This document shows, piece after piece, positions 1,290 through 48,644 of a stretch of DNA of 48,644 bases. The stretch covers positions 1 to 48,644 of the forward strand of contig NW_021834483.1 of assembly GCF_006345805.1 (NCBI RefSeq). Direction: 5' to 3'. Below the pieces are notes generated by a model that was given only the letters and a program-made list of their open reading frames with translations, had not been told where the DNA came from and searched no databases. How positions within the stretch are numbered: position 1 is the stretch's first letter; every line of letters starts with the position of its first letter. The translations under genes were made by a program, and so were the position numbers. Source of the DNA: Octopus sinensis (Eukaryota).

Positions 1290-4200
1290 TGCTCTATTCA
1301 GGTAACAAAATGGGCGGATTTCAGAATGGGACTGTGACAGAATGTTCACTAGTGACCGAATTTGGGGGGTTTTATGTTTTGGAACAAAAAACAAGTCCAT
1401 TTCCTCACCCAATCCGTCGCAGAAGAACATTGTGTGGAATAGAAAGGAATATCCAAATTGTCAGGAACTGGATTCCATACAATACAGTATCTGCTAATGT
1501 GGGCAATATAATACGTCGAGGTTAAGAGGGGCAGACACATTGTCTTGATGTTCGCAGGGAAAAGTGACCAGAATCTATTTCCAGTTATTTGTTGACTTTT
1601 ATCGTCAAATTCGATCCCGACCCATTTCAGAACTTCTTGTAGTGTAAAAACAGACAGGCTTTAACAATAGACTTTAAACTGAACACCTGGAACTTGGCCT
1701 CGGTGGCAGAGAAATAGTAATTGACCAGATGCAGTATGAGACTATACTGAAACCCCTCAGAACTGACGGACATGTCTCGAAAGGGCAATACAGAACTACG
1801 TGGAATGGCAATTCTAAGCATATACACACAAATACAACTTTGAGTCAAGAGAACAAATCAACCGAGATACTTGGCAGAAGGAAGGCGAATTTGGAATGTT
1901 TTGTGCTGTTCTAACACAGTAAATAACTTGTGAGAAGATGGCCGATAACAGTTGTTCCTCCGAGACAAGACTGGGTGGTACTCTACATTGCTTAATTCAT
2001 CGTAGAGTTGGAAGAGAGAGTACTCACATATGAGGAATGTTCATTCCTCATTCCATTCAGGATCAGATGTAGTTTCCCAATGACTGGCGTACTTTAAACG
2101 TTAGGAAATATCCAATCCTCTTGAATTCCCTCTTCTCGTCCAGAAAACTTTGTAATTGTCCCAAATGACCTTCAGAGGGCAGAAGAATCATATCTTAACT
2201 CGAAAATAGTGGAGATTCCGGGGAGAGAATGGTATCAAAAATGGCCCGGGATTTGGGAATGTCGTAAATTAAAGACAGGACGTGTACAACAATACGAGGA
2301 GCTACACACGAGCGGACAGACTTATTAAGACTAAAATCAACAAAAATAATTCAAACCAACTGACAAATTCCAGGAAACCCCGGCAATAAGCGTGCAACAA
2401 CTCAGCCAGACCTGGGACTGCAGAAAGACCTCTAAAGATGAGTCTTGCCGGTTAAATGACATATCTTTTGGCAGCTAAAGAACAGGTCGTTGGAATCGAG
2501 AATATTGATGATGCAACTCAACTCTTCTAACATCTGAACAATCACATGAAGGAGTACTCGCAATCTATTGTTGACAGAACAATTCTTTCTTCTTAAAATA
2601 TTCACGCAAAAAAGCAACAGTCCCAACAATCGGTAACGAATGAATAATTTCTGAGACATTACGTAATCTAATATTTACAAGTGAAGTCGAATTTGCATCT
2701 TCGGGTGTCTCGTGTCTGGACAACGCACTGAGCGCATCAAGGACCTTTAAGTGACAAAATTGGAGTACTTTTTGCCGAAATGGTAAAATATTGAGAAATA
2801 AGCTGTTAAGAATGGATTGCAGTCGAAGACGGATTATCACCTCCAAGTTAGCACGGGACAATGTCTGGGTCCTCACTAATGACACAAACATGTAAATTGG
2901 CTAATCTACGGTCAGATTCCTGAAAGGACTGAGAGTGGCAGACCACATAGGAATATATTTTGTCAATATTGTCCACAATCAGTTTACTTCGACTCTACAT
3001 TTGATTGGACAAGTTTACAATGCAACAAAAATTGGCCACGAAATTAATGAATGTGTTGAGTGAAGGAGTCTCTCACAAAAAGAGCACCGGAAGTGTTCGT
3101 CGAGCAATTTTCTGGTGATCAGTCATAAGCACAAAACCAAAACGAGGCGAATGGAAAGTGGAATTTATAGTAAAAAGGCAATTCGGCCAAACAAGAACTG
3201 CAAATCGGACACATTCGAGTATTCCAAATATGCCGGGAAACTCTTATCATAGCCAACTCCAATACCTCGATCAGAGCTGTGTGGATGCAACTAATGTTCA
3301 ACTCCAGTCTAGTAGTATCAAGTAGTAAGTGAAACTGCAAAATAAATATGACAATACGACCGATTTAAGATGATTGAAAGTCGTTTCGAAAATGTATTTG
3401 AGGAATAGACTATTAAGAACTTGGGAGATTGACTCGTGTCTGTCACAACTAAACGAATTACTGCCGAGAATCACAATGAGATGAGAATTGATAGGTTTTG
3501 AGGGGACCATTCGTCAATCGACACAAGTCTGTCAACCCACGACTGGACGATGGGTAAATAGCAGATCTTCCACTTTGCACTTTTCTTTAGTCTGACCACC
3601 AGTGCCCCACAATAAAACAACAAAATATATGTGCTTCATAAAATATTGTAAAGGACATTCTTTCATAAGCTGAAGCAAACATTCGAAAACAGTTTGGGTG
3701 ATTGTGGGTGACAGAATCGAATCAGTGTGCAGTAGTAACTAACAATCCCCACCAGTGCACTCATTTCTACTATGTCACTCCTCTGTACATATTGGTGGCT
3801 TGGTTGCTCAGTTTAATGAAAATGTCTGCTACAATGTGACAATGGCATTTAGTGGAGGTGGTGTTGTATGAACTCAGTGGAAGTCACATTTTGTACAAAA
3901 GTGACATTCGCGGGTTAATCAAGGCACCCAGCGAGACCACATGGAAGGTATATAAGCGATTCAGTACTGTACAATGACAAGACTAGTGCTCTAATTAACG
4001 ACCCGAGTATGCTGGATAGTTCGCCACTCAACAGGAATCGTTAGTCCCTTTGTAGAACTGTGGGAAGTCTGTTTAATACTAATTCCAGCACTTCCTGTCC
4101 GTATACTCCTCTCTGTTTATATTAATATCAAAGGAGACTAAGCACGATGAGAAGAACTCAAGTGCATGTTGAAATATCTCCAACCCTTCCCTGAACAGTT

Positions 4201-5415
4201 CTATAAACATTCCAAAGTATAGCACTACGCTTATGAATGTAAACAACCTTTTTCGGTGACTAAACTCAGAGACTGGGCTCGGTTTATTAACTCGTTTATT
4301 ACATTCTCCTGATTAAAGTCGCCAGGTTAGGTCTATGGACAGACAACAACACAAGTGACGAATCACGGAAACACCAACTCGGGGGATGAGATTGAGTAGA
4401 GCAGTTGTTTACAGAGACAAACAAACAGTTCAGTTACCCTAATACTATTAAAGTTACGTAATACTGTATTTCAATTAAATTGACATGTTTTATTTGCACA
4501 TGAATGAGTAGTGAGTATAAATCAGTGATGGACTATAACAGATATATACTGATATAATACAAGTGGTAGGTCAGATATTCGATGTCTTAAAGATTCAAAT
4601 GCTCACCCAACCAGTCCACAAAACTAAAAGATTCACTTAACCCGCAATCATTTTGCAGACAAAGTTCAGCAAGTGTGACAATGCTCTACACACTCAAGTC
4701 GGAGATGACCCACCTCACGACCAACTCACTCTGAATGCAGTCAATGGTGTGGAATACAATCCATTTATTCATTTCGTGGTAATCCAATTGAATAAACAAC
4801 TTTAAAAGGCAGTTGAAATATTCCCAATCAGCAGTGGAGGCGATCCTGATTGTTTCGTTTTTTATCAAATTTAGAGAATTGAGGACATAAAATGGAGGCC
4901 AATGACAAGTCGGATTGCGTGATAAATAATCAGTGAAGGGTGTGAGTCGTGGTCATTTCTAATTATTAATTAACTTAATTACATCTAATTTGATGGCTGA
5001 GAAGGTTGTTTGTTGGCAGATTTCTAATATAATTACACATTGAATACTTCCAAAGAGGATTACAAGTCGGCGGAGTATCAAAGTGAAGACTTTGTGGTTT
5101 GTTTGAAGATTAAATTGAAGCAATATATGCTCCAATGAGACCATCTTGTCAAATACTGGAGTGCAGGCTGTCCTCGCTACATCCAGCATGATTTCATACA
5201 GCCAGACAGTGCTGTCTACACAGAGAAATATATTCCAAGTCTTTTCTGTCTCCAGGGATGTTTCAATAAACTCAAACAGATGGTCGAGGCAGTGAGGGTC
5301 AGTCTCAACTTGTTGATATATTGTGATTAATACTGTTTGAGCACTTGGTTATTGCCTCCTGGATTATGGTACATGCCACTCTTGTCATGTCTTGAAATGC
5401 GTCAACATGACTCAT
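1290..5415 (-). pseudogene. ATR: ATR/Mec1-like PIKK, multi-exon N-terminal HEAT region, truncated before the FAT and kinase domains
   Basis: Spliced peptides FQYSLILHLVNYYFSATEAKFQ..FTLQEVLKW..FWSLFPANIKTMCLPLLTSTYY..IPFYSTQCSSATDWVRKWTCFLFQNI follow the ATR stretch FAYGLLMELTRAY..YAIQELL..WRRFPEHVREILEPHLNTRY..PIY..EWSASWAGYLI. Mini-introns are present (e.g. 1814-1838, 25 nt). Candidate ATG at 5415; continuity of the upstream exons is inferred. Several apparent frameshifts; no kinase exons downstream. Confidence 0.65.
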
Positions 5416-5722
5416 TTTGCACAAAAAGTCCCGCTTTATTTATTTAATTATTTTAGTCATTATATAAACAAAATATCAACAAATCACAAATTGCTCTTAA
5501 TAAATATTCTGGTTATATTTCTAATCGTATACGTGGTTGCCGAACACGTTTTGGAAGAAATTCGAGTTTGGGGGAAAACGAATGTTCTCAGCAAATAAGT
5601 CAAATTTAAATACAAAATCAACAAAGTGCCCAACAAACATCGTCAAATGCCACATTTAGAGAAACGACAGACTTACAGTTACCAGCCAAATTATGTTGAA
5701 GAAATTTAAATTGCCTACAAAT

Positions 5723-6078
5723 AGCCCGTTCCTGCCTGTCTGGAATCCGCCGTATGTCCGGTGCCTTGTCGGGGGACACAACTCTCACTCCATACCATAG
5801 CCCACATACAATTCCAGGTTGATTGCCACTCGGACAACATAGGAGACATCATATTCACGGAGATCGACTATTTTGTCACTAAAGTCATCAATTCCTGCGG
5901 ACTGATCAAACTGCTTGGACGAGGCGACAGAAATTACAAGATCTCCACCGTGAGCCAAATTGAAATCGAACTGGCTTGGACAGTTGATATAAGGTCGATT
6001 ATAGGAACTAGGTCTGAGATCTATCCAACTCTAGCCCAGCAATTGAGTCACTGAGAATCGTATCAATAGTAGACCAAT
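5723..6078 (-). pseudogene. POLE: Internal fragment of DNA polymerase epsilon catalytic subunit (N-terminal region just before ExoI)
   Basis: DKIVDLREYDVSYVVRVAINLELYVG/WYGVRVVSPDKAPDIRRIPDRQERA matches Pol2 DxREYDVPYHxRxxID..WY..ERP. One frameshift at ~5798. The LAFDIET motif that should follow is absent. Confidence 0.8.
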
Positions 6079-6299
6079 CTAATTTTATATTATTTTCAAC
6101 TACAAAAATGTTTTGTGGTGATTTTATGTCGTAAAATTTCAAATTTCACTGTTTCATTGTAACCAATCAAAGAAATGCACTTTTCAAACATTCTCATTGG
6201 GAATCCATTTCGAAGAGTTAAAGCTAGTTTTAACATTCTATTTATTATTAAGACATTAGAATAATAATAAACAAACATTGGTTAATCAAAATTTCCTAT

Positions 6300-10426: not shown

Positions 10427-11361
10427 TCACTCGATTAAACAGACAGATTTCTAAAAAACTAGGAATAACCCACCAACCTCTCTGCTGACATATGAATCAT
10501 CCCAATTCTGCATATTATGGTGATTCTCACTCTCACGCGAACTAAAAGCCTCATGTCCCAATGCTGACAAAGATGCCAAATGAGGTTTAACAACGTTCAA
10601 AACATAAGCAATGCAATTGGTCAGTTTAGGCAGATCATAACCACAGCAAAACTGCTCGTACTTATATATAGGTCTGACAATTTTCATAAGGACCACCGAA
10701 ATTGCGGAAGCCAGCATTGATCTCGGAAATTCAGCAGACACTGAATCCAACAGGACATAAGTTAGCATCTAAAATGTCACTTCTTGAATACTTTGGAACC
10801 CTGAATCAGCTTGTACTGGGAATAATTTGGAATATCAATATCGTCAGAGAAATATGACTGCAAAAACAGCTTGAGCCACAGAAAAGGAGTGGGGACTTGA
10901 AGCGCCCAGTCCAAGGCAAAAAGGATCTTAATTTCCATAGCCATCACATCTTTAGAAGTAAAGGCATCTGCTGTCATGCCAGAGTAGTCAGACACACAAC
11001 AAGAATCGTCAGACTCGAATTTTGCTGCCAAAAAGAGACAAGTGATTCCAATAAGTTGTAGTTCAGACATTTTAGTGTTACTCAACGCAAGATATCTGTC
11101 CAAAATATCCACGGAAAGGTAAAATATTTCCCGGTCGTGTTGAAAAGTTTTGGTCACTTTCATGAGCCAGTGAATCAGTTTCGCCCTTGCATAACAGGTC
11201 ACGTTCAAGGGCTTGAAGGAATTTGGAGGACAGTGCTTGGACTCAATCTCTAACCACAATTTTATGATCTCGGTTTGCTTGCTCTCAGGTTTAGGATGAA
11301 GGCTATGATCTGTCCTGAACATGGCTCGGATTGGGGCGTTTCGACTTAATAAAGTCGGCAT
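10427..11361 (-). CDS. CCNE: Cyclin E-like G1/S cyclin, 3 exons
   Basis: Cyclin box RAKLIHWLMKV..REIFYLSVDILDRYL..LQLIGITCLFLAAKFE. Removing introns 10769-10791 (23 nt) and 10451-10477 (27 nt) gives KLIQGSKMLTYVLLD..EFPRSMLASA and HNMQ, as in the cyclin E C-terminal half. Confidence 0.85.
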
Positions 11362-11548: not shown

Positions 11549-11590
11549 TGTGACATGGGCAACTATGTCGCTATGGGCAGCCTGAACCAC
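11549..11590 (+). repeat. Ginger-like terminal inverted repeat (TGTGACATGG-N12-CTATGGGC)
   Basis: Same layout as the reverse complement of the element end at 18131-18160. Confidence 0.5.
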
Positions 11591-11619
11591 AGAAAGGTAT
11601 TAAACATAAACAAGGAAAG

Positions 11620-12430
11620 GAAAGAGTTATTCCCACACGTGCCACACACGATACAATCTTCTTAACCATCGTTTGCCATCCTCTGCGGTTTGTGCAAGCC
11701 ATCGCAGTTCGTCCAAGTCCTCGCATTTTTCAGGGTTTTGCCCACGTGTTTCAGATCGTGTTCCAGCGCAACCGGCAGTGTTGTGGGGACGTCCGCGAAT
11801 TGACCAAACCATCATGTCCAGCAGACCAGCCGTGCTCTCTATTATTCTTAAATATGTCCAATTCCGAGATCATCTACTTATTTGCTGATCGTGATTGTCG
11901 GAGTAAGAAACACCGCTCATGATGATCGGTTATTCTTGGATCGCCCATTTCAGACAAGCTTGTTGTCACTCCTCTCAAATTCAAATCGAAGGACCACACT
12001 AAGCGCCTATTCAAGTTGGACTCACACGCTTCCTTCTTTTGATAATGAACTTTCAGCTTTTTATCTTCTCCAGTCGTCTCCCCCTCCCGCTCAGCTATCG
12101 GCCCTTAATAACGTCGTGTCTCGCTCCCTGACAATGATCTTAAACACCCCTATTGGTTTAGAACTCGAGCGAACCTCCAAATCTGGCATTGTTTTTCGCA
12201 GGTGTGTTGACCTTGCCATGCTATTTCTCATCCTTGGCTGCTAACTCTTATCAATTCTGTTCCCTTCCCTTGTTCTGAACAGTCTCAAATTCAAGACCGC
12301 ACTAAGCGCCTATTCATGTTGGAGTCACATGCTTCGTTCTGATAATGAATTTTCAATATGCTTCCTAATAGTTGTGTGTGCGCTGGGAACGTCGAACGAT
12401 GTGGTCTCCATTCAGACATGCCTCAACATC
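11620..12430 (-). mobile_element. Decayed RTE-like LINE 3' fragment
   Basis: RGRP..TLPVALEHDLK..LDELRWLAQ..MVKKIVSCVARVG is homologous to 25583-25879; ~75-bp imperfect direct repeat at ~11975-12055 and ~12285-12355. The upper boundary is approximate. Confidence 0.65.
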
Positions 12431-12637
12431 GTAGAGAGCAGTGGATGTTTCCGTACTCAAACCTGTTGGGTTTAACTGTGACGCCCTTTTAACACTTTTT
12501 TAACGCCCTAAATAAATAAACTGTAACGCCTTGACGAAATGAGGGCAGAGGGAGATAACCGAAAATTAAATTAGTCAGATGATTTAAAGAGTTTATGTTA
12601 AAGAGAGTAGAAATGGATGAATAAATAGTGTTAGAGA

Positions 12638-13248
12638 ATGTGGTTGTGGGACTATGTGAAGGACATGTTGAAACAGCTGGGTAGTGTGATAGTTAGAAGT
12701 GTAAGGAGTGATGAACAAGTCCGGGGTGATACTACTACTGGGAATAGATGACGCAGGGAAGACGACTCTGTTGCAGTATCTCAAGACAGGGGCAATGCAC
12801 ACACAACCCGACTCTGCATGCAAGTGAGGAGTGTGTGGTGAGGTAGATTTGGAGGAGTTGACGATGGGGGGTGTGAATATGCAGGCGTATGACCTGGGAG
12901 GACACGAGCAGGCTCGGCGAGTGTGGAAGGACTATCTGGTGACAGCGGATGCGATCGTGTTCATAGTGGATGCGGCAGAGAGGAGTCGAGTGGAGGAGGG
13001 GAGGGAGTGTCTGCAGGTTGGCCTGTCCCCCATTGCAGTCCGTGCTCACCTCCACCAACATTCCCGTGGCAGTTCTGGCTAACAAAGTGGACAAACCAAA
13101 TGCAATGGGGCCTGACGAGTTCGTGCACACCTTCGGACTGTACGGACACATGAAGGCACTGCGCCCTTTGCAAGTGTTCATGTGCTCGATAAAGAAGAGA
13201 CACGGATACCAGGAAGCATTCGCGTGGTTGGCCAACTACATTAAATGA
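12638..13248 (+). CDS. SAR1: SAR1 small GTPase (COPII), 4 exons; one frameshift in a CA microsatellite
   Basis: MWLWDYVKDMLKQLG..GIDDAGKTTLL..PTLH..DLGGHEQARRVWKDY..NKVD..VFMCSIKKRHGY..WLANYI. Introns 12681-12705, 12824-12846 and 13017-13038. Confidence 0.92.
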
Positions 13249-13329
13249 TGTTATTTAATAAAGCATTATCGTGGTGGCCACTATCGACTCTTCTAAAAAT
13301 TAAATGAATTACGTAATGTATCTTCATTA

Positions 13330-13615
13330 ACCACGAGTTCTCAAGTTTAATAGGAGCAAGAGACACCGTAATAAGTTCTCTGCAAAAGTTCGTCCAATCT
13401 GTAATCGTATTTTGCGAAATTTCTAGTTCGTACGAGATGAGATTTCCTTCGTAATTTAATGCCCACATATACGTAAGCATCAAAATTTTCGCTAACGGTA
13501 AATGACTTCTTAAAATTAGTTTAAGGATCACTTACTGCAAAACCAGCTGTTCGTTCTTATACTTCGAGAAGTATTGCATGGCATACATGACCAAATTACG
13601 TTGTCCGAGTGGTCA
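13330..13615 (-). mobile_element. Merlin (IS1595/ISXO2-like) transposase N-terminal fragment with a probable mini-intron
   Basis: WSCMPCNTSRSIRTNSWF..SHLPLAKILMLTYMW..ELEISQNTITDWTNFCREL; 23-nt GT-AG intron at 13509-13531 restores the frame. Confidence 0.75.
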
Positions 13616-13800
13616 CTCAGAGTGCTCTCATTGACAAGTGTGTTGGGCACATTCAAGGCATGAGGAGAACAGATGTGTGACTGTCTGTAGTCCTCTCCAC
13701 TCCGAATGTCGATTAATACACATTTCCTCTCCTTCAACCAGTCATACATTACATTGCAGCACACTCCTATTATGGCCGGGGTCGTCGTGCACTGCATCCC
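13616..13800 (-). pseudogene. Rhodanese-like domain fragment (USP8-type)
   Basis: MYDWLKERKCVLIDIRSGEDYRQSHI...ALNVP fits the rhodanese LIDxR..xY..SHI..A.NVP pattern. Confidence 0.55.
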
Positions 13801-14594
13801 CCTCCTTCCTTCCTTTCACATACCTCATTTGTTCTTTTTACTGAACACCCGTCCAATCCTCCCACTTGGCTCGCTCATCACTACATTTTTATTCAAATAT
13901 TTATTCAATATTTTCTCCAAGTGGTCTCCAATTCATTCACGGGAACGCGTTCTACATATGCGATTATTAAGTCAATATGACGTCCTGGTCTGTCCATCGA
14001 TTTTTACTGGGCTGTTTGATCCTGAAACAAAGTTTTTCGGCCACATCGTGGACACCTATATATTTGTCGATTACTTGTTTTCTCAGACCCATAGAATACT
14101 TGTTTTATAAAAATATTATGACTGTCTTCAAGACTCCTTAATTTTGTTTAAAGATAGTATTGACTATAAATAATTCACATGCTAATAATCCAATAAAGGA
14201 TACAATGATTGTACAAAATGCTGAATCCCTAAATCCGACAATAAACAACACTTTAGGGAAGAATATAGATCAAAATAAATTAATCAGAATCCAAACTATC
14301 ACTCACCACGCATAAACGAGTTGGTCTTCTCACTGGTGCAAGAAATGGAGAACGCTACAAATATGAACTATCAGTTACAGAAAATGACATTTTCATGACC
14401 AGCGACAAAATTCTCGATCTCTTCGCTCTCGCTACCACACAGACTGCGGTAGGCAAATGAACGAGAACTAAAACGTTTTGCTCCATTTTTGGAAATTCAC
14501 AATTTTTATCATCTCCATTTTTCTGAATATTTCCATCTTCCCTTCCTATAAAGGAAGTAAAGCCAACTTCTTAACTTGTAACATATCACTAAAC

Positions 14595-14635
14595 CAACCC
14601 CAGGGTTCCGCGGACCCCACGTTGGGAACCATGGT
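14595..14635 (+). repeat. Isolated hAT (Charlie-like) terminal sequence
   Basis: GGGTTCCGCGGACCCC..GTTGGGAACCATGG end motif. Confidence 0.4.
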
Positions 14636-14649
14636 CTGGGGTATCACTA

Positions 14650-15020
14650 CAACTTTACATTGGCCAAGTAGTACTCGCAGTCGTACGAATCGAGCAAACT
14701 GTTGCATCTGAGAAATCGAGTTGCAGCCTCCTCTTTAGAGATCCCTCTGTCAATGTAAATGAATCAAGTCAAACTGCAAATCTACGCGCAACGAGTTGAT
14801 CAAAAGTGTATCAGACTCGTATTGTTCTGGGAAGTAGACAGGAAAGCATTCCAGCTCACACAACTCCTCGTCGGAGTACTTGTCTGGTCTGATTCCACAC
14901 TCAATACTTTTTATGAGCAGAGCTGACAGAAAGGTCAGCATAAGTTGTCAGAAGGCTTTGGACAGTTTATTATTGAGCACTGATGTGAGTAAGTGTCTAA
15001 AATGAATAATGTGACCCACC
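14650..15020 (-). pseudogene. Unidentified host-gene fragment with in-frame stops
   Basis: Frame open apart from three stops (HLLTSVLNNKLSKAF*QLMLTFLSALL..DLIHLH*QRDL*RE), preceded by a 23-nt GT-AG candidate intron. Confidence 0.35.
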
Positions 15021-15029
15021 TCCCTACGT

Positions 15030-17075: not shown

Positions 17076-17329
17076 ACGATTTTTGGCTTAATTTTTATTT
17101 TTAAAAAAAATATAAAATCCAGACAATCCGATAGACAATCCCATTAAAATTAATTTAAATTAATAAAAATGAAAAAATAATTAAAATCTATTGCTTATAT
17201 GTCGAGATTTACACTTGGTCGAAACTTGGAGATTACCCATATTTCACCATCGGGAATGTTTCTTCTCTGTCTTTTCTTGACGAGTAATCTTCCTTGGTGG
17301 ACTATATTGTTATGTTCATCTCCTCCAAA

Positions 17330-32672: not shown

Positions 32673-32829
32673 ATAAATATTATTTTTATGGGCTAATTAT
32701 AAAGTTTAACTATGCCTTGTATTGATTTAAATTTGTTTTTGTTCATGTACTTAAATAATTTAAAAAAGTTATTTTTTAAATGTTGGTAAACCTAAACTTG
32801 TTGGAAAATTTTTAGCGTGCTAGATTTGT

Positions 32830-33775
32830 TTCTTGTAATGGCTTCTTATAGAGGTTATGTCAAAGATTCTTCAGAGTAACGAATTTTAAAAGATGCTTTG
32901 TAAAATAAATTCCCGGAAGTTTTTTTAGGCAAGCAAAAATAGACTTATAAAAAAAGATCGAGAATTTTACAATAATCAATTAAGGGTACTCTAGATTTAC
33001 GATTAATGCGCAGATTGTATTACTTTGGACAATGAAACTGAAATGGAGCATGTAGCTAAATCTCTACATGAATATTCACAGGGAGGAGTATATAAGTTGA
33101 TTCGAAAAAAAGACAAGTATAATCAGTTGCTAAACAATTTGTTATAACTGTTGTGTTTTTCAATCAGAAAAGTCATTCGAAATTGTGAAGTATGTAAATT
33201 TGCCTGTCCATTGAAAGTTTTAATTCTTTTTAATTTTTAATGTAGGTTGGTGATATGAATCATCATATCTTTGCTTCTTCTCCGAATGAAAGGTTTCAGC
33301 TAGATCTTGTAGATCTAAAAAAGTTTTCAGTCGTAAATAATAATTGTAGGTTGGTAGTAGGTGTTTATTGTGGTTGGTAGTAGGTGTTCCGGATGGTCTT
33401 GGAGAATTGTCGTCAAACATGACTAGTATTGGGGATACGCATGGAAAGAGACACTTCGGTGCCTTGTTTTTATCTCCCCGCCGATGTTTTTCTTCCTTGT
33501 TTTTCTTTTTCTTTTCGCTCAATAAACACTATTCTATTCTATATTCTATTGTAGTAAACAATTTATTCAGATTTGCATTTGTCAGACCACTTTTTCATAA
33601 ATCTTCAAAAGAAGTATGCAACAACTTAAGATCACTTATCTATCTATATGGACCTTGAAAAATTTTGCAATCAGATAATGGTTCAGAATTCAAGAATGTG
33701 TCTCTGAGAGATCTATGCGAAGAGTTCAATGTAGTTCAAATACATGGAAGACCAAACAATCCCCGTACACAGGGG
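32830..33775 (+). mobile_element. Ginger/KRBA2-like integrase fragment
   Basis: CEVC zinc motif, ERFQLDLVDL, FAFVRPL, LQSDNGSEFKN, HGRPNNPRTQG. Confidence 0.85.
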
Positions 33776-34139
33776 ATGGATAAATTCGAGTATCCATTCT
33801 ACCCGGGCTCTGAAATAATTAACATTTTATTAAATAATCGAGTCGAGGCAAATCAATCATTTTTATTTAATAGATAAAATAAACAAATGATTAATTTTAA
33901 TATTTTTTGTTAAAATGCATTATTCTTTCAAGTTGTCTGTTTTTTGTTAAAATGTGTTCCAATTCAAGGTCGGACTGTACTTTAAAAATGTAGCCGACAG
34001 TGACAAAAATAAAAATTGAATTGTGTAGATAGAAGAGTTTTAAATTCGGTATTCCTTGGAAATTTTACATAAGAATCAATAAAAATTGAAAAAACACACA
34101 TTTTCAAGTGGTCACGTTTTTTTTGAACAGACTGTATGT

Positions 34140-36470: not shown

Positions 36471-37677
36471 ATTTGATGAATAAAAATAATATTTGTGATT
36501 ATCCAAGAATTATATTTTTACGTCACAAGGTCAAAAGTAATGTCAAGTATTCGATCAATTCTAATTATTCCTCAACTATTATTTCAAGTGACCTCAATTA
36601 TTCTTCAAGAAATTAGCTTTGGCATGTTTTAGATGTGTAAAAACCTGAATAGTAATATAATTTTGTTTTAAGCATCAATTTCAATTTATTACTCGACACC
36701 CATTTCTATCAATCCATATTTTTAACCAGGCATATTTTAAATGAGCACGACAAAGATTTTCAATCGATCAAAAGCATTCTAAATGCAAATTTCTAAAAGA
36801 CTTCAACAAAAAATAAAGCATGCCGTTTCAGCAAAAAAATTGCTGTAAAGACAATTAATGGTTCACCTGAAATTCAAGCTCGAAATCATTAAAGAGGGGA
36901 AAAAATAAACTCTAATAATCTAACATTATAGATAAAAAATGCTAAAGGAGAAGTATAAACGGTCGAAAATTATCTACTTTGGTTTTTTTTGTTTTTGGTC
37001 TCCAGAGTGGTTTTTAATTAGACTACGGTTATCGACTCTTATTTCTGAAGTATCGAAATTCAATTCCTATAGTCTTTTTAAACTAATTTTAAAATATAAC
37101 TTAAACTTTGGATAAATGAAACCAAACAAAATTAACGAAACAAAAGAGATAGTTAAATTGGTTTAGTTAAATGGGAAAAGTTTAACCCATTTCATCGCTT
37201 TAAAAAAGACCTGCATTTTAATTTAAAATCTTTGTTATTAAGTTTGATAGAAAAATTTTTCATTTATATTTAAGAGCTGGAATATCAAATGCTAATTAGT
37301 CTTTGGACATTGGTTATTTATTTTTTGATTAAATAATCTCGTTGGGTATTGGTTTGGCCAGTCTGGCATTGTGATCAATGAAAGTATTCTAATTTCGAAT
37401 TCATTCGTATATTTAAACGATCATTAACATCATTTGCGATCAATATTTTGTACATGTAAAAGGAACATTCAGAAGACATAAAAAATCTAATACTTCGTGA
37501 ATATAATAAAGGAAAATCAATCCGAAAAGTTTCAGAAAATTTTCATATTCCGAAGAGTACAGTATGAAACATTTTCAATAAATGGAAATTATAAAAAAAA
37601 TACCAAAAATAAGCCAAGATTAGGAAAACCGGAAAAAAATATCATCTCGATTAATTCACATAGATAAACGAAAGTTA

Positions 37678-38059
37678 CAGTGGAACTTGTCTAAACCGGC
37701 CCCTGAAAATACCGGATCTCTCCGTATATACCGGCCGTTTTCTCCGGTCCCAATTTTTTACAGTATTTTCAATATAAATTTCACCTCTTTATTTCGGATT
37801 CTCTATATTCTGAAAACCGGCCGTTTTCTCCGGTCCCAATTTTTTACAGTATTTTCAATATAAATTTCACCTCTTTATTTCGGATTCTCTATATCTGAAA
37901 ACCGGCCGTAATGTCAAGTCCCAACGGCTTTTTTTACATTGTGCAAACCGGACAAAGAGGTATTAAAAATAACTGTCAAAACCTTGATAAGCCGGATCTC
38001 TCTATAAACCGGCCGATTTTCATGGTTCCGTCGGATTCCGGTTTAGACAAGTTCCACTG
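37678..38059. mobile_element. 382-bp pogo-type MITE with an internal 86-bp tandem duplication
   Basis: Perfect TIR CAGTGGAACTTGTCTAAACCGG; TA TSD. Confidence 0.92.
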
Positions 38060-38270
38060 TACTTAATAATCAGAAATTGTCTCATTAACAACTCTCTACT
38101 TACTTGGGCAAAGTAGGATTGCCAGTATGCTCACAGACTGGTACAAATGCTCTAAGAATAGAAGAGTCCCATAAATGTCGTCCACATAAAGTTCCGCTGC
38201 TTACTAGGAAACACGTCCACGGTTAAAATATGCTAAAAAAATTTACCTCAAGACGACGACTTTCTATATA

Positions 38271-39080
38271 CAATTTACCCGCCATTTCTATAACTCGCCA
38301 CTTTTTTTGGGAAAAATGCCTTTTTTACAAAGGAAATTCTCTTACTCGCCACTTTTTAGTACTAAAAAATGACAATTTATTATTTAAAAAATAATTTTTC
38401 AAATATTGAATGCTATAAAAAAGAAAGCTGAAAGATGAAGTCTCATTTTCTTATCTTGCCTGGAAAAATGTGTCGGTGGATACAATATCAAAATGTTTTC
38501 AGCACGCCAAATGGGAAAAAAGCATTGAAGAACCTATTAAAGGAGACCATAAAATAAAAAATTTCGAACAAATTATAGATAAATTAATGATTTCAGATCT
38601 CATAAAAGAAGAGGAGTTTATAGACTTTACGCACTCTGAAAATGACGAACTTCATGATTTTCTACAAAACAATAACGATAAAAATGACAATTTAAACAGT
38701 TCAATTATTGAAGATTGTGAAAGAAACAAATGTATTACACATCTAGACGCGATAAAAAGTGTTTCGGACCTCAAAAATATTTTTCACATGATGATCATTT
38801 TAATGTGAATATGCTTGAAAGTTTAATAAACATGAAAAAAAATATGTTGAAAAGATCAGTCAAAAAACTATCAATGATTACTTTACTTAAAATCTTCGTT
38901 TTTTAATAAATGTTTCAGATATTTATTTAAATGTTTAGAATCATTCAAATAGGTAGTTAAAAATTATAGACAATTTTTATGATAGAAGATTCGGATATTG
39001 ATTATTTATCTTACTCGCCAAATTCTCGCCAATTTTGACTTGGTCCCAAAAATGGCGAGCAATAGAGAGAATGAAGACTG
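38271..39080 (+). mobile_element. Internally deleted pogo/Tigger element
   Basis: TA flanks, diverged TIRs, CTCGCCA subterminal motifs, AWKNVSVDTISKCF transposase C-terminus. Confidence 0.75.
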
Positions 39081-39665
39081 TAATATTATTTGGTCAGATG
39101 AGACAAAGATAGAAATTTTTGGAGAGAATTATACAAGCTACGTGTGGCGTAAATCAAAAGATGAATATCGCCCAAAAATACCACACCAACAGTTAAACAT
39201 GGCAGTATTATATATGGGGTGTTTTTCTTCTCGGGAAGCTGAGAAAGTTTATGTAATAGACGGAATATTGAATGGTTCTATATAGTGTGATATTAAAAAA
39301 ATATTTTTTCGTCAATTAAGAAATGTGGTATTGCGGGGAATTGGAAATTTAAACAGGACAATAATCCGAAGCATAGTGCACAAAAGCTCAAGAAATGGCT
39401 AGAGGAACATTTATTTATTACCCTTGAATGGCAAAGTCAGTCCCCAGATCTAAATCCGATTGAAAATCTTTGGAAAGAATTAAAAGTCTTTTTTTATGGT
39501 CACATAATTACATAATCCAAATAATATCACGGAATTACAATTAACTTAAATATAAACAGTTGTTATAAAAAACACAATTTTATTAAAAATAAACAAAAAG
39601 ACTAAGACTAATTTGACCCATTGCACTCGCGTTAAATTGGCGCATCAAAATAAATAAATTGATAA

Positions 39666-41138
39666 CTAATTAAAAGATGAAAGTAAATAAATAGAATCAA
39701 TGGAGCGGAAATTCACATATTTCACAACGAGATGATCCCCCTGCATTAATAAACCTACATTTCGAACAACCAATCTCCTCATCAGAATGCACTGAAATGA
39801 CTCCCTCAACCAGAGTCAATAGCAACTCCCACAAGCTCTATCAACGACCTCATTTCTATTCCGTGACGGATCCTCGACAACAAATCACGATTCCCGTCCC
39901 TCACAGCCACCAACAAATCCCCAATAAAAGTCTAAATATCAAAACGGCATAATTTCACATCAAGTGAGGAAAACTCAGAACTAGTGAGAAAAACAAGCAC
40001 GTGAAAGTCTCCTATGCACTCCAAAAACGAATCGTACCCAAACTGCTGCCAATACTTCGCAAAACCCAACAAATTCTAAAAAATAGCTAAAAAGAATAAA
40101 ACTTGTGCTTCAAAATGGTCAGCTCGGTTTTCAATCGCATAAAATGTTTTAGAAACATCAAGAGGGAGTGAATAGACATTGGTCTTGGGAGTTCCCACTC
40201 ACAACTCAGTAATGAGGAACTCGTTGGGTACTGGTCTGGTCAGTTGCTTTACATTATTGCCGTAACAGTCAGTTTTCTAGACATTTCTACCCCAAGTAAC
40301 CGACCACATAAAATACGTCAGGGACATACTGATTGTCAGTTGATTCCTTTACGTATGACATCCCAGAACACCCGATAGTGGGCACAAGCAGTCCTTCCTT
40401 CACCATACACTGCACAGAAGCCTGGTATGCCTCGAGATGGATTTGCATGTCTTGTCCGCCTGCAAGTATTTCTATTAGAACAACCAGTGGCCACGACTGT
40501 CACAAATTTGGACCCATAATAACCCCCGTCGGCCAATTTGCACGGATTCGGATACTTGTTCTGATGATAGGCCGCAGTTATACATTCCTGCGAGCTCAAA
40601 TAATACGATTTCTAGCAATATAAACACTCCAAACAACATCATTCCCCCGAAAGTGCTTTACAGTCCCAGCACTCGAATCTGCTGACACCAAATCCATAAA
40701 AATCCACCCAACAACGACCAATCCCAACTGGGCGGATATCCACCGAATATTCTCTTCCCGAGAATCCTCCAACAACTCAATTCCATCACGACTGGACACC
40801 TAACCCTCCAAAAATACAACAATCACTTGAGGAGGCTCATAAATGGCCACTACGACTGCTTTAATCCCCAAAGGAAATTGTTCCATCACTTCATACCTCC
40901 CAAACAGGATTCCAGCCCTTCGATTTCCAGTTTTCCCCCCAAAAATGGAGAAACCTCTGAACCATTGTATCATTTTCGAAAGAAACAAACTCCACATGTC
41001 TATACTCCTTCAAAACACACATTTCATGTAAAAATAAACCTGTCGATTCAACGTGATGGCCCCAGGCTGACATTGAGAACAGATCCCGGCCGGATATGGC
41101 TTGTGGAGGGGACAGGACTGGTCAATCTTACATTTCGT
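39666..41138 (-). pseudogene. NPLOC4: NPL4 3' piece (zinc finger 2, MPN, CTD, NZF), multi-exon
   Basis: CKIDQSCPLHKPYPAGICSQCQPGAITLNRQ|[79 protein letters not shown]. About eight mini-introns, one homopolymer frameshift (40935-40940) and one in-frame TGA (40199-40201). Confidence 0.93.
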
Positions 41139-41196
41139 TAAGCGCGCGCTCAACGCCGCTGGATTTCATTCGGTCCTGGAACCGGTTGGGTTAGAC

Positions 41197-43423
41197 CAGG
41201 GGTTCTCAAGTGCGGCCCCGAGAATCTTTTTTGCGGCCCCGACTTCCAAACTTTAAAATAAATTTTGGATATAAAATTAATTGTAAATTAATATTATTAA
41301 AGATAATATTTTAACTACACGTGTTTGTAAATATATTTCAGGTTGAGTATTTTTTCATGCCATCAAAGAAATATCGAACATTATCTCAAGAAAATAGAGA
41401 ATTTCAAATTGAATGGGAAGAAAAGTTTTTTTTCGTTGAACTGAATGGTAAAGCTGTTTGTTTGATATGCAACTGTGTCATTAATTCATTGAAAAATTAT
41501 ACTATTGAACGTCATTATAAGAAGCACTCCGAAATATACAATTTATATCTCGGAGAGTCAAGGAAAAAAAAACTCAATATATTAAAGACGTCATTTAAAA
41601 ATCAGTCCTCAATATTTAAACCAGTGGAAAATAAGCATCAGTTATTAACGTCTTATAAAATTAGCCACCTTCTTGCTGTAAATATGAAACCTTATTCTGA
41701 CGGAGAAATTATTAAAACTGCTATTTCCATTTTTTGTGATGAATGTTGTCCGTCAAATATACAAAATATTGCAAAACGATTACCATTAAGTAATGATACT
41801 ATTACAAGAAGAATAGAATGTATTTTTGAGGACCTTGCCCGTCAGCTAATCAAGTTCTTTACTATTAAAAATAATTTTTATAGAACATCGAAAGATTTTT
41901 TATATCATTCTTTTGCTGTCGACACGAGTAAAAATATCTCTGATACCGAACAAATGGTCGTATGCATTAGAGGTGTCACTTCGGATTTTAAAATTTCTGA
42001 AGAATTTTTTTCTCTTCGTTCATTAAAAGGCACTACAAAAGGAATGGATGTACTTAACGAATTCCTTGAAAGTATTAAAGAATTTGACATTGATCCTTCC
42101 AAAATAATTTCCATATGTACTGATGGGGGGGCGAATATGATTGGTCGTAATAAAGGGTTTCATGGACTTTATTCAGAATGGAGACTTGAAAAAAATCTTG
42201 ATCCTATATTTTGGCAACATTGTATCATTCATCAGGAGAATATAATCGCAAAGTCACTTAAAATGCAAAATGTAATAAGTACGGTGTTGTCCATTGTGAA
42301 TTGGATACGCGGTAAATCTCTCAATCACAGGAGATTTAAAAAAATGTTAGTGGAAATTGACACAGTGCATAATGATGTGCTTTACCATACCACTGTTCGA
42401 TGGTTGAGTCGTGCCGCGTGCCTCAAAAGGTATATTGCTTGAATAGAAGTTAGATTTTATGAACTACTCCCTCAAATAAGAGAATTTGTTAAAGACCACA
42501 AATACCATGATTTGTTGAGCAGTAAAGAGTGGATTGCCGATTTAGCTTTTTGGGTAGATCTAACCTCTCATTTATCGTCGTTAAATTGTGAATTACAGGG
42601 GAAATATAAATTTTGCCATCAACTCTATGGATCTATTGCTTCTTTTATATCAAAATTAAAACTTTGGAGGGATCAAATAATGCTCAAAGATACAATTCAT
42701 TTTACTTGTTTGAGTGAAAATAAAGCTAACGGTTCATTTGAAAAATATACTACCATTATCAGTCACCTTATTGTTGAATTTGAAAAACGTTCTAAGGTTT
42801 ATTAAAATTTAGTTTATTTTAAGAATTTTGATGAAATTTTGCCATCAATGAAAATTTTTGCAGCACCATTCAATATAGATCCTAAGAATGCTCCGCCATC
42901 ACTCCAATTAGAATTGATAGACCTTCAATCAGATGTGCAATTTACCTCAGTGCAAAAGATTGAAAATTTAATGGAATTTTATAGTTCACTTCCCAAAGAA
43001 AAATATCCGAATATACTCATAAATGCTTATAAATATGCTTCAATGTTCGGATCCACTTATTTATGTGAGTCAATTTTCAGTAAAATGATTCACATAAAAA
43101 ATAAATATCGAAATAAATTGACTGATAATCACTTATGCCAGCTTTTGCGATCTACATGTGCCTCCTATATTCCGTGTTATGACAAATTAGTTAACAATTA
43201 GTTAAAATAGCTAACAATTTTTCGTTTTAGTTAACAATTTTTCGTTTTAGTCATTTTCCTTTAATTAATTAAGACTAACTATCTCGGTTTCTGAATAAAA
43301 AATGAATCTAAAAAAAAATTAGTTAAAAGTTAATGAAAGTTTTAATTTAATTTATTCTGCGGCCCCGAAGACAATGGTTAATTATCGATTTGGCCCCGAC
43401 GTTAAAAAACTTGAGAAACCCTG
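41197..43423 (+). mobile_element. Complete Buster/SPIN-type hAT transposon (2227 bp)
   Basis: TIRs CAGGGGTTCTCAA / TTGAGAAACCCTG; perfect 8-bp TSD GGTTAGAC (41189-41196 and 43424-43431); GGCCCC subterminal motifs. Confidence 0.97.
41357..43201 (+). CDS. Spliced hAT transposase (~587 aa), GTF2IRD2/SPIN-like
   Basis: BED finger CLIC..H, SFAVD, CTDGG, CIIH, RWLSR, STYLCESIFS. Introns 41854-41883, 42430-42453 and 42797-42823 join the three ORFs into one open frame. Confidence 0.92.
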
Positions 43424-44484
43424 GGTTAGACCGTGGTGACGGAAAACGTCCCGATGGGTCCACGCTATTCCCGTTCAAGGGGGGACTCGCTCTCGTTTGG
43501 GACGTCACCTGTGTCGACTCGTTTTCCTCGTCATCTCTCATCGACTCTGCCTCCCGCCCTGGCTCACCCTCCGCACATGCCGAATCGGAAAAATCGCAGA
43601 TCGGCGATTCCTTTCGGAGATCGGCTTGATGATCTCGAGGAAGAGTCACAAGAGACGTGAGTCTAGCTGGCTTTTTCAGCGCAATATCGCGAGGGAAATG
43701 CGCTGAAACTGCCTGTCTATTCGCTCGTCCTCTCAATCAAAGAATTAACGTGGATGAATTAGAATTTAATTGATTAATTTGGAAAAAATAGTTATATCTG
43801 AGTGATATTGATTAACTAGCAATTCTACTTTGTCAATGTTGACACTATTATTTTGATCAATTCTGGTTTCATGTGGACCTCGCTTGATCCCAACAAGTCA
43901 GAGAATTGTTTTTTTCATCGTCTCCTACCCGGAGCAACTATTCATTAAAATACAACTGATTCAAGATTAATTGAACTGCAAATATGTCCTCTTTTACTAA
44001 TTGTAGAGCGTATGAGTAGAAAAATAATATTGCCTAAGCGTTCCTTGGGATCCATTCTCTGTCTTGTAGAATGAGCACACTGAAATCAACAATGTAATTC
44101 ACAAAGCCCTGGAAAGACCTGGTTTTCCTTCAGTTCTAGAACTGACAGGCCTTGATCTTGAAGATGCGAAACGTCTAGACGGCTGTACGCTTTTGAATCC
44201 GGGAAGCAGCTTGTTTCCGAATCTTTCGCCAAGCGAGCTTTGAATTTCACTGCATGTCGACCCGGTTCGTCGGCTGAGAAGACGAATCCACGAAACTGTC
44301 GAAATACGATGATTTGTGCGATCTGTGTTTTCGGGGCCAAGACGCTTGCTCGTCTAAAGAAACTTGGCCGTGCACCCATCGCTCCAGAGATCCCAGGGAA
44401 TTTATATTCCTTATTCAGAAGATGTTTTTAAACGGGAATTATCTCTCAATCCTGAGAACTAGTACTTAATAACTAGAATTCTCT

Positions 44485-45230
44485 CCCTCGACCAACACCG
44501 CTTGGCCTGCTTTGAGACGGCATGTCGCCCTCACAGCGGAGCCTGGCTAAATGCCACTCCACTGCCGAGTATTGGGAACCTTCTGGACAGTGAGTCCCTA
44601 CTGACTGGAATTTGTTTACGTCTTGGTCTTCGCCTATGCGAGCCACATGTCTGCCGCTGTGACGCGAAAATCTGTCGTTTTGGACTGCACGCTTTATCGT
44701 GTAGACGCAGTGCTGGCCGAATCCCGTGGCACGCGGCTCTTAACGACTTTATCAGGAGAGCTCTGGAAGTCGCCGGAATCCCCTCCCTGCTTGAACCCTC
44801 TGGGATCGATCGGGGGGACGGAAAAAGGCCTGACGGGATTACTGTGTTTCCCTTCAACAAAACGAAGCCTCTTACCTGGGATGCCACGTGTGTGGACTCT
44901 TTCTCGCCTCAGAACCTGCTGATGTCCGCATCCGCCCCTATTGTCACAACCGCGGAATGCAAAAAGATGCGGAAGTACTCCTTACTTACGGAGAAGTTCC
45001 AATTTCTTCCATTCGCGGTCGAGACTTCCGGTTCCTTGGGTGGTAAGGCAATCAGCTTCGTTCAGGAGATCGGGTCCCGCATGTCTGCTATCACAGGCGA
45101 CGCCCGCGAATCAAGATGGTTTTTCGAGCGGATATCCCTTGCGATAGTACGCTCTAATTCTTTCTCGATCGCGTCGGCTTCCCGTCCATGAAGCTTTCAA
45201 CACTTGACCGAATTCTTTTTTCGTAATAAA
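44485..45230 (+). mobile_element. 5'-truncated CRE copy, CCHC plus RLE in an open frame
   Basis: GAWLNATP..CRCD..HALSC..KRPDG..WDATCVD..KKMRKY..AIVRSN; ORF 44502-45191. Confidence 0.92.
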
Positions 45231-45404: not shown

Positions 45405-46102
45405 CACTCAACCCTCTCAAATTGACCATTTTTAACAATTTACCTCTGAAAATTGAAAAAACTCTCAAAAATGGCCAATTTTCAAATTGGCCACAAATTT
45501 TAATTTTTCTTCGTACTATAATTTTTATTTTCAAAATTTTTTTAATAAATTTGAATCTTATTAATAAAATTTGTTGCACATGTCTTCTCTTAATAATTAT
45601 ACTCGTCTGAATTTCAATCAGAAAATAGAAATTTTAACTTATAAAGAGGAGAATCTTCATTTTTCCTGTCAGAATTTGGCCGAAAGATTGTCTTTTTTGT
45701 TAATAAAAAATTTCTCAAAAAAACAATCAACAACATTCTTTTGAAAAAATATTCTCTTCTCAAAGATAGCAAGATACACAATCTAGCCTCTAAAAGGTAT
45801 CAAATCTTAAGTTTCCTGAACTTGATGCAAAATTGGTTGAATGGATTGTCTTACTAATCTCATCTATAAGACGTTACAAAGAAAATATAGTTATATCTAA
45901 AAAAAACAAATTGGAATTGAATTTTACTTTAAATAAATCAATATTTTTTTATTTTCTTTAATTAAGAAAAATTATGCTAACTGAAGACACATCAAAGTAG
46001 TTTCTTTGAAAAATTGTCGATTTTATTTTCTAATTGGCCATTTCTCAAATTGGCCAACAATATTGAAGAAACCAAAAATGGCCAATTTGAGAGGGTTGAG
46101 TG
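45405..46102 (+). mobile_element. Non-autonomous pogo/Tigger element (698 bp)
   Basis: TA-CACTCAACCCTCTCAAATTG ... CAATTTGAGAGGGTTGAGTG-TA; FPELDAKLVEWI remnant. Confidence 0.9.
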
Positions 46103-46856: not shown

Positions 46857-47321
<465 letters not shown>

Positions 47322-47469
47322 ATCACAACAAAAGTAAATTTACAAGTTATGATAAAAAATTTGAATTTTAATTAAATAATTTTTCTTGTCCAAATATTAA
47401 AAAAATAAGAATTAATAATCTTTTCCATCTGGTCACTAATTGCTCTAGAAAATTTCTTTTAGTAGACCG

Positions 47470-48240
47470 ATTGGCGTCACCCGATGTAACTATACTCTTA
47501 ATCCCTCGCATCGTCTACGGAGTGGTCAATCCTTTATGAAACGAGAAGCAATTACAACCCGATCCCGTTGAAGGTCAAGAAATCAAACCGAATGTCTTCT
47601 GATACAATTATCCGTATCAGATCATTGAACAAGGAATTGAAGACCAGTGAACACAAACACACTTGTTTGAAATGGAATCGCATTCTTACTGCCGTAAACC
47701 GTAATCGTTTAACGGGAGAAGCCTCCTATGGAGAGGCAGTGTGTCAACTGTGGTAAGTTAGGACACACCCGAAAGGTAGGTGGGGTGTAATCTCGAAGGT
47801 AAGTCGCACGGCTAGCGTTGCAGTCCCTGCGCCACAAAAGCAATCCAAACCTCCCAAGTCCGCTTGGGTGGCGAGGCCTGTGAAGCCTGCAAGCCACATT
47901 GCGAGCGGGTCGGTATCACCTTCGACGACAAAGTCCGCTAATAGCATCCAGTGGGCTACAGGTGATACCGCCCAGCAAAACCTAGGGGGAGGGAAAGACG
48001 TCCTCCATACGTGGAAATGCCACTGCACTCCTCCCTTGGCGAGCGTGTTCCCCAGGACACCATTAGTCCTGCGGCGCAGTTGTGTGTGCGCCTACTAAAA
48101 TTATGTATGGCGACGAAGTGCAGTGTAGCGGATATGCTACATTGCAACATGGCTGAGGCCAAGAAGATTTTTGGCGAGGAGCCGATATGATGCTCAACAT
48201 TATATCGGTGAACGCGCGCTCCTTGTCCGGTAAAGGAGAC
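47470..48240 (+). mobile_element. APE-type LINE 5' region: ORF1 with zinc knuckle and the first residues of ORF2
   Basis: RQCVNCGKLGHT knuckle at ~47735-47770; ORF2 start MLNIISVNARSL (APE motif I) immediately after the ORF1 stop. Confidence 0.7.
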
Positions 48241-48644
48241 GCCGTTATGCACACTCCTAGATATGAAAGACGAAGGGTGGAAATGTCGAATAAAACTCTA
48301 GGGGACATCAAGAGATTGATCGAGCGGGCCTTTGATTACAAAAAGGAGTTCGAGCGTGCGATTAATATAACAGATGCAAAAGCTCGACAAGGCTTTGCCA
48401 CCAGGAACCTACCGCCAATTGAGTCTGACCTTGTTTATGGGGTGAAAAGATGGGTCGCTGATATTGAGGTCTCTGGGGTTTTGGAACATTTGATTGAAAA
48501 GGCGAGGGAGTTTGACAAGAGTGAGCTGTTTATATAATTACTAAATTGGATTAATCAATATTGAACCTTTTGAATTTGATTATATTGATCTCCAAATACG
48601 AAGACTGCTTACTAAACTGAAAATACGCCTGAAGCCAGCCAATA

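Follow-up and report, generated by a model that had tools for sequence, protein, structure and literature searches.

Duplication graveyards of pericentromeric and subtelomeric regions contain unprocessed pseudogenes amid transposable elements (TEs). Pack-TIRs of animals hold foreign DNA between terminal inverted repeats (TIRs), and single copies of them are ascribed to gap filling at TE-internal breaks (Tan et al. 2021, PMC8277862). Re-insertion of extrachromosomal circular DNA (eccDNA) has a published signature, the same-strand permutation of a duplicated gene (Takahashi and Innan 2020, PMC7188851), and for Dicyema the rearrangement and elimination of DNA, as well as the formation of circles, have been reported (PMC6543705). 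Amplification chimeras, including those of multiple displacement amplification (MDA), are mostly inverted and join segments <10 kb apart, with a priming overlap of 5–8 nt for MDA (PMC9984789). Here, a 48,644 nt contig (NW_021834483.1 of the Octopus sinensis assembly GCF_006345805.1), analysed over its whole length and referred to as the window, is compared with these systems. The window is a mosaic of TEs and intron-bearing copies of host genes, among them an NPL4 gene whose halves lie apart in swapped order. It is probably explained by nested transposition together with DNA-level break repair, leaving gene debris of mixed age, with no programmed shredding.

A preliminary description, made from the letters of the sequence, had read the window as shredded throughout, with essential genes and TEs present as abruptly cut fragments. 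A dense patchwork of gene and TE pieces is indeed found, but UBA52 and a cyclin are intact and the shredding is therefore not window-wide. Pfam was run on all 436 stop-to-stop frames of at least 45 aa, with additional read-through scans and searches of NCBIfam, PDB and Rfam. Ten host-derived segments are tool-supported, one of them (AASDHPPT-like) below the cut-off. Pfam matches in the window comprise phosphorylase, cyclin, Arf/Sar1, rhodanese, histone fold, zf-NPL4/NPL4 and ubiquitin, and, for TE domains, RVT_1 (three places), rve (two places), Tc1 and hAT. According to a hand-drawn map, 45 % of the window is TE, 12 % confirmed host-derived sequence, 14 % unconfirmed candidates and 29 % unassigned; neither tRNA nor tmRNA was found in the window. 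The sequence itself is truly a mosaic, and the genome of the organism most likely is as well. The ten host-derived segments are as follows.

393..960, plus strand: glycogen phosphorylase, 3′ half, decayed, with several frameshifts and hand-placed introns of 23 and 24 nt
5500..6080, minus strand: phosphopantetheinyl-transferase (AASDHPPT)-like, decayed; Pfam AASDHPPT_N at E 4.8e-4 (below cut-off), no plasmid match
6576..6852, minus strand: 28S rRNA fragment of 277 nt, cut on both sides, with an internal deletion
10451..11361, minus strand: cyclin, intact; 295 codons, one 23 nt intron, Pfam Cyclin_N and Cyclin_C, open from ATG to stop
12638..13248, plus strand: Sar1, full-length; introns of 25, 23 and 22 nt, one frameshift in a CA run
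13531..13770, minus strand: rhodanese-like domain, partial; Pfam Rhodanese positions 6–52 of 102, E 7e-5
21484..21786, minus strand: histone H4, diverged; open to the stop, no in-frame start, Pfam CENP-T_C/Histone and NCBIfam histone
23205..23469, minus strand: NPL4 5′ half (zinc-binding region); one 25 nt intron, cut at about 23205, Pfam zf-NPL4 3–70
39700..41138, minus strand: NPL4 3′ half, up to the RanBP zinc finger; Pfam zf-NPL4 85–142, NPL4 and Zn_ribbon_RanBP
46857..47321, minus strand: UBA52 (ubiquitin-L40), intact; three introns of 25, 26 and 24 nt, spliced frame open

NPL4 had been described as partial. Instead, it is split and both its 5′ and 3′ pieces are present, only the N-terminal ~100 residues being located by no tool in the window. 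The 5′ half aligns to residues 103–168 of the human NPL4 structure in the PDB (E 1e-10, against 2e-3 for fungal structures), with a spliced alignment onward, and the 3′ half spans the next zinc knuckle through the C-terminal finger. In spliced alignments, the 1.4 kb of the 3′ half contain seven introns of 25–32 nt, one stop and two frameshifts; with a second homologue the last frameshift moved, and one alignment gave an eighth intron. Both halves are on the minus strand, 18 kb apart, with the 3′ half preceding the 5′ half. Their ends are reciprocal, with a gap of about five codons or less and no overlap seen. When the halves are rejoined, 19 residues separate two anchors, which is the modal spacing among homologues (exactly 19 in 5 of 15, 18–20 in 9 of 15). 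Among 483 trial joins the proposed join ranks second, and the top five have the same length within one codon. The chance that two independent truncations would meet within ~15 nt of a 2 kb gene is estimated at roughly 1 in 100. Of the frequent breakage and rejoining proposed for the window, a single junction pair gives support, namely that of the reciprocal NPL4 halves.

The 5′ half adjoins what appears to be the 3′ end of a long interspersed nuclear element (LINE), and the 3′ half adjoins the truncated 5′ end of another LINE in the same orientation. The simplest history is a retro-insertion at the break and a later permutation whose opening point lay within the insert. An identical map would result from block transposition, or from tandem duplication if the two copies lost reciprocal parts. 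Two parts that complement each other without overlap, and sit on one strand in exchanged order, resemble the permuted duplications that PMC7188851 attributes to eccDNA. The NPL4 break differs in coinciding with LINE ends, and an insertion-first history or tandem duplication with loss is equally possible. Word-index homologue searches returned 653 candidates for the 3′ piece, 4 for the 5′ piece and 278 for the cyclin (searched among longer proteins); none was scored, at 1e-10 in the case of the cyclin, which is weak evidence. For NPL4, a set of 150 homologues was collected.

The host copies form a decay series that runs from intact (UBA52, cyclin) through one lesion (Sar1) and three lesions (NPL4 3′ half) to many lesions (phosphorylase). 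The decay process is long-running and has spared some genes, and a single window-wide shredding is not the picture. Introns are kept in NPL4 (eight), Sar1 (three) and phosphorylase (two), which bears out the earlier view that the copying took place at the DNA level and excludes an origin as processed pseudogenes (retrocopies). The preliminary description overlooked that the introns are only 22–32 nt long, and this is why intact genes look broken; it also overlooked the complementarity of the two NPL4 pieces. A non-standard genetic code was considered and rejected: the intact genes are clean under the standard code, and the dead copies carry all three kinds of stop.

In UBA52, the Pfam ubiquitin and Ribosomal_L40e matches fall on separate exons. 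The ubiquitin is unusually divergent, with several substitutions relative to the usual animal sequence, and the L40 tail is likewise divergent. Sar1 matches Pfam Arf at 49–105 and 114–174. The rhodanese piece, already described as partial, is confirmed as such by its Pfam coverage; its PDB matches are to generic rhodaneses, and a possible resemblance to USP8 is supported by no tool. Within 12600–13900, which holds Sar1 and the rhodanese piece, coding strands are G-rich (GC 43–46 %), as are the introns; nearby genes are AT-rich. The two pieces may come from a different genomic compartment. The phosphorylase piece matches Pfam positions 437–479, 491–511 and 567–609 and PDB residues 555–683 (E 3e-14), carries many frameshifts and stops, and may have its 5′ half beyond the adjoining LINE, outside the window. 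The histone H4 frame is AT-rich and strongly diverged, and its upstream region is cut at 21820 by the right arm of an inverted duplication. The 28S piece matches Rfam LSU_rRNA_eukarya at positions 962–1384 of 3401 (99.7 bits, E 1e-22). It departs from the Rfam consensus in a large internal deletion and in numerous G-to-A and C-to-T changes, and it is a possible taxonomic marker.

That the window is a duplication graveyard was one branch of the preliminary description, and this branch is supported: copies range from intact to unrecognizable, introns are kept and nested TEs surround them. Like known graveyards, the window contains intron-bearing fragments of mixed age, nested TEs, a scrap of rDNA and TAACCC-like repeats. 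It differs in that it may represent the typical state of its genome, gene density being in line with the published dicyemid average.

The host-gene fragments had also been said to abut TE pieces without target site duplications (TSDs) or poly-A. This is true of most host-gene ends; however, five elements have TIRs with a TSD, and three LINE copies finish in TAA-repeat tails. A TIR/TSD screen gave 37 candidate pairs, of which 30 extend for at least 20 nt, versus none in each of five shuffles (1–8 candidates per shuffle, none reaching 20 nt). Twenty-six of the 30 long pairs are echoes of two inverted duplications and one is the fourth-largest TIR element; short chance pairs were also discarded. 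After inspection five distinct elements with TIRs and a TSD were left, and several elements of the window are nested in others. The DNA transposons, including a candidate with less regular ends, are listed below.

11549..18160: candidate Pack-TIR with related inverted ends, 20 of the first 30 nt identical
22021..23137: hAT-like element, internally deleted, in a LINE 3′ UTR; 10 nt TIRs, 8 nt TSD ATTATTAC
31978..33977: TA-flanked TIR element; TIRs identical at 21 of 23 nt, TA TSD, interior of foreign LINE and integrase pieces
37441..39512, plus strand: Tc1-type transposase; Pfam HTH_SB, HTH_Tnp_Tc3_2 and DDE_3, broken by two nested TA-flanked elements
37678..38059: element nested in the Tc1 transposase, with 22 nt perfect TIRs
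38271..39080: element nested in the Tc1 transposase, with degenerate ends
41197..43423: hAT element nested in a LINE; perfect 8 nt TSD GGTTAGAC, Pfam Dimer_Tnp_hAT
45405..46102: non-coding TIR element; TA TSD, first 29 nt identical at 28 of 29

The TSD ATTATTAC is perfect in the left-arm copy of the inverted duplication and matches at 7 of 8 positions in the right arm. DNA-level foreign cargo between TIRs, as at 31978–33977 and possibly at 11549–18160, is the feature shared with Pack-TIRs as these are described in PMC8277862. The cargo of 31978–33977 differs in consisting of TE pieces, not host genes, and the Sar1-bearing element at 11549–18160 differs in its imperfect ends and its 6.6 kb span. 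The latter encloses a LINE scrap, Sar1, the rhodanese piece, a piece of a restriction-like endonuclease (RLE)-type LINE and an integrase (rve, 17181–17585). Its ends, a pair chosen by eye, were equalled in 4 of 1000 shuffles, and its 4 nt TSD is imperfect and offset by one base. We take these ends to be Ginger-like, and 31978–33977 to be pogo-like. Solo ends and truncated TE copies are common in the window, and in this respect the preliminary description is correct; partnerless ends were noted at 14580–14640, 25431–25479 and 34110–34136 (two hAT-like and one Tc1-like).

RLE-type LINEs are the commonest TE class in the window, with about seven pieces by tblastx. The following are LINE pieces of family A, which is RLE-type, and of family C.

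1..392, plus strand: family-C LINE 3′ end with a TAA-repeat tail, adjoining phosphorylase; 87 % identical to 8752–9131 and related to 18690–19250
15010..17095, minus strand: family-A RLE-type element, 3′ end missing; Pfam RVT_1, tblastx to 26464–28215
26147..29150, plus strand: family-A element, near-complete, decayed, the reference copy; Pfam PHD and RVT_1, tblastx
41139..43750, plus strand: family-A LINE, 5′-truncated, adjoining the NPL4 3′ half and hosting the nested hAT element; tblastx
44463..45230, plus strand: family-A LINE 3′ piece; tblastx to 28417–29092, starting about where the 15010–17095 piece stops

Insertion without a TSD is possible for RLE-type LINEs (PMC4640811). The two family-A pieces 15010–17095 and 44463–45230 were tried as complementary halves: they meet within a few codons and have no sequence in common, and among about seven pieces this could be chance. 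The family-B pieces at 36289–36480 and from 21090 downward were rejected as halves, since they overlap by about four codons with three differences and are probably different copies. Membership of family A in Utopia, which targets U2, was also rejected, since Rfam matches with E as high as 1 include no U2 snRNA in the window. The family, presumably CRE-like, is filed here as RLE-type.

Several short copies lie close to one another. A 54 nt stretch at 24597, at the start of a degenerate TAACCC-like array (repeats at 24639–24742), is 98 % identical to 26147–26200, which lies 1.5 kb off, near the 5′ end of the family-A LINE. Additionally, a perfect 36 nt inverted pair lies within a LINE (35481–35516 and 36211–36246), an 86 nt tandem duplication occupies 37730–37909, and a diverged repeat of 46–83 nt, its copies 303 nt apart, occupies 11992–12340. 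Short local copies are typical of template switching.

A 700 bp inverted duplication is also present.

19883..22512: inverted duplication; arms 19883–20582 and 21820–22512, 98.9 % identical, with histone H4 in the spacer

The arms, 1.24 kb apart, hold a LINE 3′ piece and one hAT end. Between them, one substitution and seven single-base deletions were counted; the deletions all lie in the right arm, mainly within homopolymers, and one of them spoils the TSD that is perfect in the left arm. A deletion-heavy homopolymer pattern is the profile of an unpolished long-read consensus. The pattern is confined to this region: 5,383 nt of coding sequence, selected elsewhere in the window, contain no frameshift, against ~54 indels expected at the right-arm rate. 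The right arm continues into a TE end, the TSD and NPL4, which the left arm lacks. An inverted join of this span agrees with the MDA chimeras of PMC9984789; the arms differ structurally on both outer sides and are not plain copies. Pure amplification fold-back fails to account for the arms, the right one carrying an internally deleted TE with its far end and TSD, although merged haplotypes could.

The source of the window was judged from introns and base composition. The modelled GT-AG introns (n=17, from Sar1, cyclin, UBA52, NPL4 and phosphorylase) are 22–32 nt long with a median of 25 nt; their placement was manual or came from a script restricted to 18–45 nt, from which longer introns could escape. 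GC content is 36.8 % and the observed/expected ratio of CpG is 0.67–1.14 across 2 kb blocks. In PMC13644364, myxobolid myxozoans and Dicyema are the only animals reported with such tiny introns. Its supplement gives intron quantiles of 22/23/24/25/32 for Dicyema japonicum, 24/25/27/38 for Henneguya (GC 29 %) and 20/21/22/54 for Thelohanellus, and a second Dicyema has a mean intron of 26.2 nt (PMC2222250). All 17 introns fall within the 22–32 nt that covers most dicyemid introns, in a search restricted to short introns, and Henneguya is also compatible. The D. japonicum genome has a GC of 36.7 %, 48.9 % repeats and 5,012 genes in 67.5 Mb (PMC6736024); this density corresponds to ~3.6 genes per 48.6 kb, and the window shows 2–4 intact or near-intact genes. 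The source is probably a parasitic animal; judged by the statistics of intron size and GC, a dicyemid-like one fits best and a myxobolid fits less well. A germline-limited or rearranging genome, also proposed beforehand, fits the likely lineage, yet no feature of the window demands such a genome.

Several of the names first given to fragments were borne out by no search. The block called ATR, said to lack its FAT/kinase half (1290–5340, plus strand), gave no relevant match in the PDB (three frames, a 223 aa part) or Pfam. Each of its frames is interrupted by 2–10 stops per 100 codons, a long open frame is absent, and its tiny-intron candidates (22 sense, 19 antisense) show no excess over shuffled sequence (20.9). 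The block is therefore either ancient or no gene at all. The POLE piece of ~120 codons has two candidate places, neither with a relevant match in Pfam, PDB, NCBIfam or Atlas; 22 five-residue polymerase-like motifs had no exact match and scattered one-mismatch matches.

14640..15010, minus strand: probable place of the POLE piece, unconfirmed, flanked by a solo hAT-like end and by a LINE end that is cut
47728..48537, plus strand: unassigned block that looks coding, containing cysteine pairs and candidate short introns; its last part is a 126 aa helical frame

This 126 aa frame (48157–48534), the second candidate place, has no match in Pfam, PDB, NCBIfam or Atlas, and its predicted fold has a predicted local distance difference test score (pLDDT) of 48. 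The TFIIB-like sequence, probably at 30430..30660 on the minus strand, likewise had no relevant match in the searches run. For the AASDH-like sequence, probably at 29696..30247 on the minus strand, the support is weak: one of three tblastn matches is to a plasmid AMP-binding protein (E 2). The pairwise score of 83, against a maximum of 53 in 1000 shuffles, was obtained on a pre-selected match, and the single-sequence fold is uninformative (pLDDT 29). The ATR, POLE, TFIIB and USP8 resemblances serve as leads only. So do three others: a RuvC-like/poxvirus-type resolvase in a broken frame at 6250–6575 on the minus strand (no Pfam or NCBIfam match), the start of a proteasome beta subunit at 31274–31400 on the plus strand (no support from Pfam or NCBIfam) and an ISXO2-like transposase at 13244–13531 (tool-unsupported).

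Under the favoured explanation, nested transposition with break repair, the window is a TE-saturated and gene-poor part of a dicyemid-like parasite genome, in which DNA would be acquired and rearranged without pause over evolutionary time and no programme would cut it. The window itself shows DNA transposons and LINEs inserted into one another with normal TSDs and tails, host genes present as intron-bearing copies at successive stages of decay, and an NPL4 gene broken once. Breaks at or inside TEs would be healed by template switching or gap filling, which would drop foreign pieces between TIRs and leave short local copies. NPL4 would first have been interrupted by a retro-insertion and its block then permuted, either through a circle that came open within the inserted sequence or through a tandem duplication whose copies lost reciprocal parts. 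Functional counterparts of the dead genes would lie elsewhere, and the cyclin and UBA52, perhaps also Sar1, may be live ones. Several points weigh against this explanation. The largest named fragments (ATR, POLE and TFIIB) lack tool confirmation, and that the dead copies are duplicates is inferred from the genes being essential, their parents lying outside the search. The permutation is seen in one gene only, and the top joins score <2 points apart, leaving the exact break base unfixed. The Ginger-like ends were paired by eye, and their TSD is imperfect. The lineage is drawn from intron size and GC, with introns placed by hand or script, and Atlas places the cyclin no more precisely than ‘Eukaryota’. 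Additionally, seven deletions to one substitution mean that the sequence is not error-free, and the junction of the inverted duplication at least may be technical.

Extended to a large share of the junctions, a technical origin, as amplification chimeras or as a mis-joined, under-polished long-read assembly, possibly of two merged haplotypes, is unlikely. It would explain the inverted 700 bp duplicate with its 1.2 kb spacer and seven one-sided single-base deletions, one of which damages a TSD, and the frameshifts of Sar1 and NPL4 fall in a CA run and a homopolymer. The frameshift-free coding stretches argue against it, and because the arms differ by an internal TE deletion that keeps the far TIR and TSD, a simple fold-back is insufficient. 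Chimerism does not yield reciprocal NPL4 ends, nested insertions flanked by TSDs or stops within frames. The earlier suggestion of chimeric assembly is possible for the inverted duplicate and poorly explains the NPL4 break, the TSD-flanked nests and decay by stop codons. Still less probable is that the window is germline or eliminated DNA of a dicyemid, scrambled by developmental circles that are sometimes re-inserted into the germline. The same-strand permutation, the intron sizes and the GC would suit such a history, and the likely lineage and circular DNA as a possible intermediate are what the window has in common with the dicyemid circles. However, the circles reported in PMC6543705 are <1 kb (median 702 bp) with shared motifs and carry mtDNA domains only, their elimination is doubted there, and the NPL4 block needs at least 18 kb. 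The window shows one permutation, no sign of stage-specificity and intact housekeeping genes alongside, and its lineage is unproven; a shared breakpoint motif was not visible by eye at the junctions inspected, no formal motif search having been made. Least probable of all is that most fragments are live, very divergent genes made to look broken by tiny introns and sequencing errors. This is true of UBA52 and the cyclin and plausible for Sar1, and the NPL4 3′ half is nearly clean once its seven introns are removed. Yet 18 kb separate the NPL4 halves, whose order is wrong. Frameshifts and stops are numerous in phosphorylase, and the 28S piece has lost both its ends and an internal stretch. In the ‘ATR’ block, stops occur in all frames at a density close to random, and introns are not in excess.

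The mechanisms of nested transposition and break repair are already known, and the lineage setting is little studied; among the literature matches listed, most subscription papers being outside their coverage, no paper concerns nuclear gene-fragment debris in dicyemids or myxozoans. If reads were to fail the junctions, the window would become a caution about assembly. If the window is typical, fragmented-BUSCO and paralogue counts would be inflated and claims of gene loss misled. A link to the developmental DNA circles of dicyemids is speculative. It is doubtful, though conceivable, that such circles, reopened elsewhere and re-inserted into the germline, have turned much of the ~90 % non-genic DNA of this ‘reduced’ genome into scrambled, intron-bearing debris of essential genes, of which the permuted NPL4 would be a fresh example. 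The swapped NPL4 halves point to an inexpensive marker that can be counted, namely gene pairs permuted on one strand, by which to ask whether the DNA circles of dicyemids, long reported yet poorly understood, feed back into the germline. A typical window would also mean that this parasite genome is reduced in genes, not in DNA, its intergenic space consisting of nested TEs and dead copies of housekeeping genes.

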